Source: an uncultured virus (IMG/VR IMGVR_UViG_3300035502_000498) (taxonomy: Duplodnaviria > Heunggongvirae > Uroviricota > Caudoviricetes). From it: 20,000 bases of DNA. Every line of letters starts with the position of its first letter. The first letter of the stretch is position 1. Under the pieces are notes generated by a model. That model was not told the origin of the DNA, did no database searches, and saw only the letters and a program-made list of their open reading frames with translations. The position numbers and the translations under genes were made by a program. Below, piece by piece: positions 1 to 4,075 of the stretch. The DNA is taken from IMG/VR virus record IMGVR_UViG_3300035502_000498, one strand, 5' to 3'.

Positions 1-22
1 CAGAGCTCTTTCACCTCCACTA
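1..22 (+). ncRNA. possible truncated 3' end of a tmRNA or tRNA-Ala (window edge)
   Basis: CACCTCC-A-CTA (12-22) matches the 3' acceptor strand of tmRNA/tRNA-Ala (U70 for a G3-U70 pair, A73). It is followed directly by a terminator and lies in a tRNA cluster. The 5' part is outside the window. Confidence 0.25.
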
Positions 23-28
23 TGAGCC

Positions 29-73
29 AAAACTCAGATTCAGCACCTCGTTAGGAATCTGAGTTTTTATTTT
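29..73 (+). terminator. intrinsic terminator
   Basis: 13-bp perfect stem AAAACTCAGATTC (29-41)/GAATCTGAGTTTT (55-67) running into a T-rich tract. Confidence 0.75.
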
Positions 74-137: not shown

Positions 138-213
138 GCGGAAGTAGTTCAAGCTAGTAGAATCTTGGTGACCAATCAAGCAATGTGGGTGCAAATCCCA
201 CCTTCCTGCTCCA
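138..213 (+). tRNA. degenerate tRNA-Gly-like gene, apparent anticodon ACC
   Basis: GCGGAAG acceptor 5' strand, GTTC/GAAT D-stem, CTTGG/TCAAG anticodon stem with loop TGACCAA (ACC at 171-173), GTGGG-TGCAAAT-CCCAC T-arm, U73 and encoded CCA (Gly identity). Defects: extra T in the acceptor 3' strand, G33, no D-loop GG. Confidence 0.65.
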
Positions 214-223
214 TTTATGTTTT

Positions 224-298
224 GCAGGTGTAGCTTAATTGGTAAAGCTCCGATCTCCAAAGTCGATGTAGATGTAAGTTCGAGTCCTACCACCTGTG
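224..298 (+). tRNA. trnW: tRNA-Trp (CCA)
   Basis: Cloverleaf GCAGGTG/CACCTGT, GCTT/AAGC D-stem with TGG loop, anticodon loop CTCCAAA (CCA 257-259), TTCGAGT T-loop, G73. No encoded CCA end. One mismatch each in the anticodon and T stems. Confidence 0.85.
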
Positions 299-381
299 AA
301 TGATATTCAGATAATTAAGATTTCTCTTTTTATCTTTATCAAAAATTTCTCTAACTGTAATTATAATCGGAGGATATTCAA

Positions 382-1162: not shown

Positions 1163-1200
1163 ACCTCCTGTGTATTAGTTAGTAACTAATTATAGGAGGT
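1163..1200 (+). promoter_or_regulatory. RBS-sequestering hairpin upstream of ORF 1208
   Basis: ACCTCCTGTG(T)ATTAGTT pairs with AACTAATTATAGGAGGT (~17 bp, one bulge), burying the AGGAGG SD. Confidence 0.65.
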
Positions 1201-1207
1201 TTTTATT

Positions 1208-1423
1208 ATGGATACAGAAGAAAACAAACAAGCTCAAGAAAAGATTAATTCAGATTCTTCGTTTGGTTATTTGTTAGCAATTATTATGGGTCTTATGTCT
1301 TTTGGAAATTCAAGTCCTAGTTTTGATATATCAAAATATGAGTTCGATTCTCTAAGAGATAGGTATCATGAACTAGATAAACGTGTTGCTCTTATTGAAG
1401 CAAAACTTTCTTCCAAAGAATGA
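1208..1423 (+). CDS. small protein with a hydrophobic segment and C-terminal coiled coil
   Basis: 71 aa, AGGAGG RBS, hydrophobic FGYLLAIIMGLMSFG, heptad-like LRDRYHELDKRVALIEAKL. Confidence 0.75.
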   Translation: MDTEENKQAQEKINSDSSFGYLLAIIMGLMSFGNSSPSFDISKYEFDSLRDRYHELDKRVALIEAKLSSKE

Positions 1424-1425
1424 AT

Positions 1426-1659
1426 TTAAGACTTTGTGAAACCGAGTAGGATGAACACTGACTTAGGCAGTTTGAATAGGAAACTGAAATCTCATCTTTG
1501 CTCAAAGATGCATTAAGTAGCAAGGCTCTGGGGACTCAGTCGGGAACGGACAGGAGAATAAATTTTGTACAGTTCAAGTGCACGATCGCTGACTAAAAGT
1601 TCCGAAGCGATTAATAAATTAAAGAACTTAGGTTTGGGTGTTTCTCCTTAAAACACCCA
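1426..1659 (+). ncRNA. unidentified structured ncRNA candidate (~235 nt)
   Basis: No listed ORF. Closing helix TTAAG/CTTAG + CTTT/AAAG (1426-35/1621-31); hairpins CAGTTT/AAACTG, TGTAC/GTGCA, ATCGCT/AGCGAT; terminal 9-bp hairpin 1635-1659 whose loop CTCCT complements AGGAG at 1552-1556. Ends 3 nt before tRNA-Met. Confidence 0.55.
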
Positions 1660-1662
1660 CAT

Positions 1663-1740
<78 letters not shown>

Positions 1741-1751
1741 TTATACAGAAC

Positions 1752-2215
1752 ATTGACAAATCGATATAATAGGATAGCATGGCTGAATAATCCTTTGATC
1801 GGGATAAGGCATTGCAAGTAGAGAGGTGGAATTCCTCTTCATAAATCTGTCAAGATTGAATGTTTGCAAATTATGGCTATATTCGGGCATAAGGCACAAA
1901 TAGAGCTAAGAGAGAAGGTTGAGAAATCACCAAGATTCTCTAAGGTTGCACCCTGAATAGTTCCTGTATTTGGTTCGAGCTGAGTAATTGTGCAATATAA
2001 CCATGCATATATTACGTATTCAGATCACAGTGAGATTTCGGTAACCAATCCGAACTAACTTTAAACTCTGTACAGAGGCTTTATAACATGATGTTGAGAA
2101 CAGCTGCTCCCAAAGTGTTGTAATTGGTTAGAAGCCTTTAGGTGTCTAGGGAATATAAGTGTTTAAGAGTAAAAACATAAAGCTCTTTGCTATCCTACTA
2201 TATCGATTTGTCAAT
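1752..2215 (+). ncRNA. large ornate ncRNA, ROOL-like
   Basis: 28-bp terminal inverted repeat (1752-1779/2188-2215, one mismatch), more than 10 internal stems, a perfect 8-bp loop-distal pairing TAACCAAT(2042-49)/ATTGGTTA(2123-30), and a position right after a tRNA in a phage. The ROOL assignment rests on recalled resemblance and context. Confidence 0.7.
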
Positions 2216-2267
2216 ATCTTCTATTTTGGAATTTAATCTTCCAGAACAGAAAATGGAGAGATTTTAT

Positions 2268-2510
2268 ATGTCAGAGTTAAAACAAAAGTTTGTATCCATT
2301 GCTCAAGTTGCTTTAATTGAGTTTTCTTTAAATCATCCAGGACATTGCGTTGTTGGCAAGATGATGGAAGGAATTCTTGATCTTTCAGAGGAAGAAATCT
2401 CAAAAGCATATGAAGCGCATGAAGAATTATCATCAGCAGTTGATGAATACATATTGTATCAATTCACTGCAGGAAGAAATGGATTTAAAAAACCTTCTTG
2501 GTTGAATTAG
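2268..2510 (+). CDS. hypothetical protein (80 aa; start reassigned from 2187)
   Basis: GGAG at 2255-2258 before in-frame ATG 2268; the upstream TTG lies at the ncRNA closing stem. Confidence 0.7.
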   Translation: MSELKQKFVSIAQVALIEFSLNHPGHCVVGKMMEGILDLSEEEISKAYEAHEELSSAVDEYILYQFTAGRNGFKKPSWLN

Positions 2511-2537
2511 TTCCTTTAGTATGAGGAGAGTTAAATA

Positions 2538-2786
2538 ATGCAAGAATCTGCAGATTGGTTTTTGGAGCACATAGAGTTTATATCCAGAGATGAATCAAGT
2601 GTGAGAGCACAATTATCTTTTAAGAAACAGAAACATCAATTTCCATTACATTCACGTTGGCAAGTTTTGGAATCCTGCTTCGATATAGATAATGGTGTTT
2701 TCAGCTCTTTACATCCAGGACAGTCCTATATTCTTATGTTTGATGAAAATATGATCTGCAGAGAGTTTCGTTTTCAATTACATTAA
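2538..2786 (+). CDS. hypothetical protein
   Basis: 82-aa ORF, GAGGAG RBS. Confidence 0.7.
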   Translation: MQESADWFLEHIEFISRDESSVRAQLSFKKQKHQFPLHSRWQVLESCFDIDNGVFSSLHPGQSYILMFDENMICREFRFQLH

Positions 2787-2830
2787 TAATGCATAGGGAA
2801 ATTATTGCATACAAGAAAATGGAGGTTCAC

Positions 2831-3103
2831 ATGACCGATAGATCAATTATTGTATCCAATGAAGTAGAATTGTCTCAAAATGAAAAAGGTCAATTTATAG
2901 TTCATAGACCTGGAAGCAATCCATATCCTATTAAACCTACTTCAAGCACATACTTCATTGTGAAGATTTTAGATTTACGTTGCGATGCACAGAAGCGTAA
3001 ATATGATTATGCCAATGACGTTATCCATTCTTTGCAAAAGAAGTTGGAACGTATTGAAAGCACTTTTTGGTATAAATCTTTGCATTTATTCGGACTTATA
3101 TAA
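2831..3103 (+). CDS. hypothetical protein (90 aa; start reassigned from 2789)
   Basis: GGAGG at 2821-2825 before in-frame ATG 2831. Confidence 0.7.
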   Translation: MTDRSIIVSNEVELSQNEKGQFIVHRPGSNPYPIKPTSSTYFIVKILDLRCDAQKRKYDYANDVIHSLQKKLERIESTFWYKSLHLFGLI

Positions 3104-3118
3104 GCACGGGAGTTAAAT

Positions 3119-4075
3119 ATGGACGAAATATTAGAAGCCATCATAAATATTAATACAAATGAAGATTGGGAAGATGCAGAAGAAAGTACTGCAAGCTTCC
3201 CAAGCGAAGACTTGCCTTTGGATATATGGGACAAAGTAGATGACACCTATAAACTCAAACCAGAACTCAAAGAAACGATCTTGGATGCATTGTCTCAATA
3301 TCCAGATGCTGATCTTTTGGACATGGCTCAAAGTATTAAGATTGTTGGTTCCATTGGTACTAATCTTTATGATGAAGATGCCGATATTGATGTCCATGTT
3401 GAACCAAAGTCTGAAGCACTTGAAGGAAAAACTCCCGAAGAACTGGAACAATTCCAACGAGATGTAATGAATTGGTTCAAAAATGAAAGAGAAGAAAAAG
3501 GTTGGTTTGTAGATCAGCACCCAATGGAAGTATATTTCTCATTGGCTCCAGTTCAAGATTATTTTTCAGATACAGTCTATGATTTACTAACAGATGAATG
3601 GATTAAACCAGTTAAGAAATATGCAATGGACTATGACCCATTTACTGCATATGGAGATGTTCTTACCGAACTAGATGAAGTAGCAGCACCTGCAGATATT
3701 CTTCTTGGAAAGATTAAAAGAGCTCTTGACTATATAGACAGAATTCATAAAGGAAAAGGTGCAGAAGATTTAGTTCAACCTCATCTTCAAGAAATCAAAG
3801 ATTCTGTCTTGGCTCTCAAAGAATGTAAAGAAAACTGGAGACTCATTCGTAGAAGAAATTCTGTAGAACTTCCAGATGAATTACCAGATGATATTACTAC
3901 TTTAGAACAGCCTGATGCATGGAAACATGATAATAACATTTTCAAACTTCTTGATGGTTCTTCTTATTTTGCAGTTGTTAATAGCTTAGCCAAGTTATTA
4001 GATGCCAATGGAGAATTAGTTGAAGATGCTCCAGAACAAGCAAGAAAGATTCTTTCTGATTTCTATTCTAAATAA
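3119..4075 (+). CDS. Pol-beta superfamily nucleotidyltransferase of large phages
   Basis: hG[S]x(n)DhD motif IVGSIGTNLYDEDADIDVHV, third carboxylate in HPMEVYF, helical C-terminal domain. Confidence 0.8.
   Translation: MDEILEAIININTNEDWEDAEESTASFPSEDLPLDIWDKVDDTYKLKPELKETILDALSQYPDADLLDMAQSIKIVGSIGTNLYDEDADIDVHVEPKSEALEGKTPEELEQFQRDVMNWFKNEREEKGWFVDQHPMEVYFSLAPVQDYFSDTVYDLLTDEWIKPVKKYAMDYDPFTAYGDVLTELDEVAAPADILLGKIKRALDYIDRIHKGKGAEDLVQPHLQEIKDSVLALKECKENWRLIRRRNSVELPDELPDDITTLEQPDAWKHDNNIFKLLDGSSYFAVVNSLAKLLDANGELVEDAPEQARKILSDFYSK

Follow-up and report, generated by a model that had tools for sequence, protein, structure and literature searches.

A candidate stand-alone RNA beside the initiator tRNA gene in the tRNA island of an uncultured phage

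Directly upstream of the initiator tRNA gene of a large tailed phage lies a stretch of about 235-238 nt which may be a stable RNA in its own right, freed by an RNase P cut at the tRNA, with a pseudoknot that locks the 3' end. We give this explanation an even chance of being right. The sequence was analysed as part of a 20,000-nt piece of viral DNA, here called the window. As an earlier note on this DNA had reported, the region is bracketed by a stop codon and a tRNA. The stop codon (1421-1423) is that of a 71-aa open reading frame (ORF), the tRNA is tRNA-Met(CAT), and the candidate spans the whole gap between them. It is probably a real transcript, with a predicted fold that is probably uncatalogued and of a known kind (Table 1).

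Table 1. Features of the candidate RNA and its surroundings (window positions)
Feature	Position	Strand	Basis or remarks
Degenerate tRNA	about 138-216	+	25.9 bits against Rfam tRNA
tRNA-Trp	223-299		
Putative hairpin locking the ribosome site of the 71-aa ORF	1163-1200	+	z = -5.4; anti-Shine-Dalgarno-like arm
71-aa ORF, one hydrophobic segment	1208-1423	+	directly upstream of the candidate
Candidate stand-alone non-coding RNA, about 235-238 nt	1423-1662	+	presumed ends
P1 closing helix, 5' strand (partner 1620-1634)	1423-1436	+	pair probability 0.41-0.90
5' arm, 11-bp helix 1444-54/1492-1503	1444-1503	+	pair probability 0.78-0.88 for most pairs, 0.54 for one
Central arm, 1531-36/1598-1603 and 1538-45/1586-94	1525-1608	+	pair probability 0.91-0.99 with the pseudoknot strands kept free
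Terminal pseudoknot, 5' strand AGGAGAA	1552-1558	+	complementarity
P1 closing helix, 3' strand	1620-1634	+	pair-probability fold
Terminal 9-bp hairpin, loop CUCCUUA on 1552-56	1635-1659	+	pair probability 0.74-0.99
tRNA-fMet (CAT)	1663-1740	+	presumed RNase P cut at 1663
Enlarged manA-like RNA, long closing stem	1750-2218	+	fold, weak Rfam match, contigs

The tRNA island and its transcripts

The window is phage DNA, with GroEL, tail-fibre and polynucleotide-kinase families among its genes. Relatives of the proteins encoded next to the candidate are found on contigs that reach 169-188 kb; one of these is named Siphoviridae sp. ctYh54, and the relatives of the phage, whose source is probably an animal gut, are about 170-190 kb in size. 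The first 2.2 kb form an island of tRNA and non-coding RNA genes, in the order degenerate tRNA, tRNA-Trp, a 246-aa and the 71-aa ORF, candidate, tRNA-Met and an RNA of ~470 nt. The candidate is non-coding and flush with the initiator tRNA inside this island, with tRNA-Trp, the degenerate tRNA and the manA-like RNA all at most 1.4 kb away. The initiator features of tRNA-fMet can be read directly: C1 is unpaired, the anticodon stem has three G-C pairs, and the CCA end is encoded. The degenerate tRNA has ACC at the anticodon position, preceded by G, together with a CCA end, and falls below the default ARAGORN threshold.

Two other features of the window may be recorded here. Positions 1-70 (+ strand) carry an apparent 3' end of tRNA or tmRNA type, followed by a long hairpin which is flanked by A and T runs and resembles a bidirectional terminator. 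At 3119-4075 (+ strand) a 318-aa protein is encoded with a conserved GS...DAD[IV]D motif of the nucleotidyltransferase type and a weak match to Pfam PF22600; it is encoded near the island and could possibly be an RNA-modifying enzyme. An assembly labelled archaeal (G001; loci L016 and L017) includes a contig of 179 kb with a distant relative of the protein, and a six-tRNA cluster in that assembly (contig C1) is probably on the same contig, which may be a binned virus.

The gap before the tRNA could also be an ordinary spacer or tRNA leader, i.e., a by-product of tRNA processing which persists by virtue of one good 3' hairpin while its other pairing is due to chance. We consider this unlikely. 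The stretch is 238 nt long and has a G+C content of 0.40, compared with 0.22-0.32 in all five other spacers, and the manA-like neighbour has a G+C content of 0.38.

Part of the region 1100-2300 is represented in 12 sequencing runs, 11 of which are gut metatranscriptomes, and coverage was calculated for the best four of the 12 (X1 to X4); the small shares of the region found in X3 to X12 were set aside as evidence. Transcription gives the candidate its strongest support. Run X1 contains a contig over 1452-1611 at a depth of 77.7 with one mismatching letter. The loose end behind this contig is presumably sequencing adapter; the mismatch is probably adapter as well, and we infer an insert ending near 1607. 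By contrast, the bins 961-1440 and 2281-3600 have a depth of 0 in all four runs. A covered candidate between empty mRNA bins argues against carry-over of DNA and against a mere 3' UTR, and a depth of 78 compared with 0 over the adjacent mRNA also speaks against a spacer. The absence of the candidate from the other three runs, where bin 1441-1560 has a depth of 0, favours the spacer, with the reservation that a missing contig is a weak hint only. The contigs carry no strand, ends or level, and X1 therefore shows the presence of the RNA in one sample only. No joint touching 1423-1662 occurs in the contigs of the four runs, which by their nature cannot show the absence of splicing or cleavage. 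The very abundant downstream RNA gave identical contigs at depths of 513-1083, plus diverged natural variants, in all four runs; in X1 the depth of the candidate is about one seventh of that of the downstream RNA.

The same data bear on a further alternative, in which the stretch is a structured 3' UTR of the mRNA for the 71-aa membrane protein. Its loop CUCCU, which resembles an anti-Shine-Dalgarno sequence, would alternate between two partners, the AGGAG inside the stretch and the one belonging to the gene itself (1195-99), and keep a toxic protein silent, a mechanism known from type I toxin mRNAs. The stretch does begin at the stop codon, the terminal loop is complementary to the AGGAG that is also present in the ribosome site of the ORF, and that site already lies within a predicted hairpin. 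However, the ORF has no RNA cover in the very run that contains the candidate, a fold of 1130-1662 retains its local hairpins with no contact between the 5' and 3' parts, and promoter calling gave no convergent antisense promoter there. Nor does the 71-aa protein, which has only one homologue (96% identical), belong to a family. We therefore regard this alternative as quite unlikely.

If the candidate is a stand-alone RNA, as we prefer to think, it would be co-transcribed with tRNA-fMet, and a cut by the host RNase P at 1663, deduced from position, would leave it with a 3-nt tail. The 5' end near 1424 might come from an endonuclease cut or from an unrecognised promoter; no promoter-like site was called in 1310-1740.

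Predicted fold and terminal pseudoknot

The predicted ensemble favours P1, the 5' arm (an 11-bp helix capped by a hairpin) and the central arm, in which 1538-43 pairs with 1589-94. The earlier note had paired the 5' end with a segment near the 3' end, and this helix is indeed present as 1423-30/1627-34 plus 1432-36/1620-24. In the 5' arm there is an internal loop with the first CUGACU and a capping hairpin at 1468-86, the CAGTTT/AAACTG pairing of the earlier note (1468-73/1481-86); the GATGA/TCATC complementarity is found at 1450-54/1492-96. The central arm encloses the AGGAGAA strand and a hairpin at 1566-82. This strand resembles a Shine-Dalgarno site with no start codon downstream, and a small ORF after the internal AGGAG was rejected, as no frame has a start codon there. 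Six-base palindromes number four in the candidate, about the chance number by a rough estimate. When the tRNA is attached, the predicted minimum has 1431-39 on the 5' strand of the tRNA instead of in P1.

The 3' hairpin is as previously described, with 9 bp (1635-43/1651-59) and a loop CTCCT (1644-48) that can pair with AGGAG at 1552-56; we find that this pairing can be extended to 7 bp (1552-58/1642-48). The hairpin has no U-tract and is therefore not a terminator, and no terminator was called on the + strand. Nearest-neighbour programs cannot score pseudoknots. Leaving 1552-58 and the terminal loop unpaired gives -54.5 compared with -56.9 kcal/mol for the preferred fold, i.e., a cost of 2.4 kcal/mol of nested structure, and the terminal pseudoknot is therefore compatible with the dominant predicted fold. 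The pseudoknot helix of 5-7 bp, calculated as a duplex, contributes -5.3 to -8.2, and freeing its strands brings back the 1566-82 hairpin (probability 0.91-0.94). The predicted molecule would consist of the closing helix, the 5' arm, the central arm displaying AGGAGAA, and the terminal hairpin docking on that strand. Such docking would most likely protect the new 3' end from exonucleases, replacing a terminator.

If the pairings of the earlier note are all taken as correct, a different architecture results, in which the purine-rich segment 1538-58 would be docked by three loops in a triple-pseudoknot core of the kind typical of ribozymes or ligand-binding RNAs, possibly a self-cleaving one. 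All 11 of its helices fit together sterically, except that C1496 is common to two of them, one of which has to be shortened by 1 pair, and its pseudoknots are beyond the scoring of nearest-neighbour programs. However, the nested part of the model reaches only -37.0, or at best -44.6, compared with -56.9 kcal/mol for the preferred fold, three compatible loop partners occur in 689 of 2000 shuffled linkers (a lenient test), and none of the ribozyme core motifs searched for matches. As a model of the RNA we find this architecture very unlikely.

Nearest-neighbour energies disfavour the many-pseudoknot core. CUGACU is present twice, at 1458 and at 1589, and AGUCGG pairs preferentially with the copy at 1589 (pair probability 0.91-0.98). 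Three helices of the earlier note are excluded in the preferred ensemble, where each is left with a probability of 0.01-0.03. CTGACT/AGTCGG (1458-63/1538-43) exists but is disfavoured, GATCGCT/AGCGATT (1584-90/1606-12) exists but is outcompeted by a stronger alternative, and CTTTGCT/AGCAAGG (1496-1502/1519-25) exists as a nested hairpin rather than as a crossing pairing. The hairpin TGTAC-AGTTCAA-GTGCA is also present (1566-70/1578-82), but a pattern test puts its GUUCAA loop, likened to a T-loop in the earlier note, out of T-arm register.

All of the listed pairings are thus present, but taken together they are no better than those of shuffled sequence, whether measured by minimum free energy or by a crossing-allowed helix set. 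The minimum free energy of the candidate corresponds to z = -1.12 (33 of 200 shuffles as good), or -1.3 in a repeat (21 of 200), and a greedy helix set with crossing allowed gives z = -0.78 (28 of 150 shuffles as good) with ordinary helix counts. A hairpin of at least 9 bp appears in 147 of 1000 shuffles, and in 59 of 1000 together with a complement to 5 nt of its loop, where it should be noted that this feature was picked post hoc. Whole-region statistics that do not rise above shuffles favour the spacer. However, the z-scores of manA-type RNAs are equally weak: 16 of them, 11 taken at the Rfam cut-off and 5 delimited by eye, range from +0.74 to -2.42 with a median of about -1.3. Since these RNAs score equally low, the z-score of the candidate neither supports nor refutes its fold. 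Twelve segments of mostly coding DNA range from +0.59 to -3.45.

Searches for families and relatives

No known family was recognised in the candidate, as the earlier note had stated for several main classes: Rfam gives no match at the gathering score or at E ≤ 10. Specifically, no model of RNase P RNA, tmRNA, SRP RNA or 6S RNA matches; a pattern search for the conserved cores of the first three was negative, and RNase P RNA was further rejected because its motif order does not fit. The same holds for group I and group II introns and small self-cleaving ribozymes, for which there is no model match and, in a weak pattern test, no catalytic core. A tRNA-like or Y-RNA-like element was sought in 1423-1662, with no + strand call even at 75% of the ARAGORN threshold and no T-arm pattern. 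The candidate has no Rfam match to ROOL or GOLLD, whose size of several hundred nt compares with a gap of 238 nt. For raiA there is likewise no Rfam model match, and the conserved linker between PK1 and P6, as given in passages of PMC12968392, is absent.

The candidate could still belong, as a highly diverged member, to a family already known, such as manA, raiA or one of more than 10,000 candidate viral RNAs outside Rfam. By eye, short look-alikes are found: GAUGAACA near UAGGCA resembles the 5' motif of manA, and UGAAA follows the closing helix. However, at E ≤ 10 the stretch alone matches neither manA nor raiA (for manA, RF01745 against 1415-1662), a pattern search for the manA 5' motif UGAAUAA-hairpin-UAAGG is negative in the candidate, and a profile built from the 16 manA-type RNAs finds nothing in 1423-1660 and matches only 1777-1816 and, weakly, 1877-1907, both in the downstream RNA. 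A look-alike family from another tRNA gap fits no better. This Asp-Thr gap RNA of ~150 nt is found at three loci (L048, 1970-2121; L057, 1140-1288, - strand; L075, 1087-1235, - strand), shows covariation in its closing helix and terminal hairpin, and has no Rfam family. A model of this RNA does not match the candidate over its full length, the best overlap (8.8 bits, E = 0.33) being mostly tRNA. Distant membership in a known family is in our judgement highly improbable.

Sequence searches recovered no relatives, a result which favours the spacer. Exact 18-mers from 1426-1659 have 0 matches in viral contigs and 5 in metagenome contigs, none longer than 19-22 bases, and the 29 matches of a gapped motif in viral contigs include none that is scored by a one-sequence covariance model (R1) and none near a tRNA. 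With blastn the same segment returns 18 phage records, where the matching pieces are just 19-29 bases long at E ≥ 0.8, and no match in plasmids and E. coli. Model R1 finds only itself in 72 sources and a best other match of 9 bits in 4 loci with filters off; in 50 records it gives three partial matches, all weak (8-15 bits). No homologue of the candidate was found by blastn in 5 records carrying enlarged manA-type RNAs, and no RNA in the arrays of the manA-type loci matches it by nhmmer or by its own model.

The neighbouring proteins have 36 and 19 protein relatives. DNA scans for these gave either none or only relatives of 31-38% identity (10 viral loci and 1 genome locus), with no tRNAs and neither RNA nearby, and tblastn against phages gave none; the close relatives known from proteins are absent from the DNA collections scanned. 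With no homologue recovered there is therefore no covariation for the predicted fold, and the candidate is a single-sequence case of limited weight. The proposal of an undescribed class of non-coding RNA is accordingly borne out as far as the lack of an Rfam family goes, but class status needs relatives, and none were found. Literature searches gave no paper on the candidate; supplement file 4 and six smaller files of PMC10690425 contain no match to six short words from it, and the large alignments of that source, which lay outside the search, may hold it.

Comparison with known phage RNAs

The RNA on the other side of tRNA-fMet is an enlarged relative of manA with a closing stem of ~27 bp, and its folding score depends on this stem (z = -3.9 with it, -0.9 without). 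It opens with the manA 5' motif at 1777-1816, which may be compared with the part of the manA alignment given in PMC2864571, where manA is described and aligned. The Rfam manA match is weak (1782-1810, 9.2 bits, E = 8.1), and the E-value from the manA profile is circular, as a pattern from this very RNA had been used to collect the profile's members. A second UAAGGCAC-type piece lies at 1877-1907, and with two manA-type pieces the RNA may be a tandem form.

The pattern taken from this RNA fetched 59 viral loci, 23 of which have tRNA or tmRNA genes; the manA cut-off is reached in 21 of the 40 loci scanned. Phage tRNA arrays among the 59 contain several uncatalogued RNAs of 150-220 nt, some of which end in a hairpin just short of a tRNA. 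Structured RNAs outside the catalogued families are frequent between the tRNAs of phages. At least three more uncatalogued structured families, of 165-217 nt and with two loci each, lie between tRNAs at L026, L038, L052, L057 and L066. Three small phage contigs (L041, L077 and L081; 19-35 kb) have no nearby tRNAs and carry an enlarged manA-type RNA of ~340 nt closed by a stem; that of L041, the one scanned, is below Rfam's manA cut-off.

Abundant structured RNAs (manA, ROOL, GOLLD, T4 RNAC/RNAD) are found in phage tRNA islands. Here one cassette combines an initiator tRNA, an enlarged manA-like RNA and a candidate with an uncatalogued predicted fold, the last detected in a gut metatranscriptome. 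We infer that its role in infection is most likely that of a structural or decoy RNA rather than of a switch or an enzyme. The terminal loop CUCCUUA resembles the anti-Shine-Dalgarno tail of 16S rRNA. A bolder and rather improbable idea is a new compact class of phage RNA whose loop is latched at rest on its own AGGAG decoy. Once unlatched, it would turn to the ribosome-binding sites of mRNAs, steering translation in step with the release of the initiator tRNA, or it would swap partners between molecules and so build an assembly of RNA only, either by itself or together with its manA-like neighbour. The candidate is small and easily transcribed, and it offers a test object for self-assembly, co-assembly with manA and anti-Shine-Dalgarno mimicry.

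T4 RNAC and RNAD are stable RNAs of 120-140 nt that are excised from a tRNA-cluster transcript. Set beside them by description, the candidate is longer and belongs to an unrelated gut phage. Passages of PMC9697503 describe these T4 RNAs (species 1 and 2) as small phage RNAs of unknown function. The Asp-Thr gap RNA shares with the candidate a closing helix and a terminal hairpin with a pyrimidine-rich loop, followed by a tRNA, and by eye some short words; the position of AGGAG is not conserved even among its own members. ROOL and GOLLD are, in the parts of PMC12286853 that treat them, non-coding, abundant, located near phage tRNA islands and rich in pseudoknots and kissing loops; the candidate is much smaller, GOLLD often exceeding 800 nt according to the same parts. 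The raiA motif RNA is of similar size (253 nt for one member) and also has a closing P1 and pseudoknots, whereas the terminal hairpin of the candidate lies outside P1, where the raiA passages of PMC12968392 mention none.

A further comparison is with manA, also a phage RNA, which resembles the candidate in size, often lies flush between tRNAs, and is enlarged in the candidate's own neighbour. In manA, as predicted for the candidate, a 3' hairpin loop pairs with an upstream element. They differ in that the candidate lacks the conserved motif of manA, and in that its terminal hairpin is outside the closing helix while that of manA is inside. As manA assembles via kissing loops in the sections of bioRxiv 10.64898/2026.07.01.735769 on this point, docking between two candidate molecules might similarly act as an assembly contact. 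On the preferred reading, the candidate can be grouped in a general way with T4 RNAC/RNAD, manA and ROOL, but it belongs to no catalogued family.
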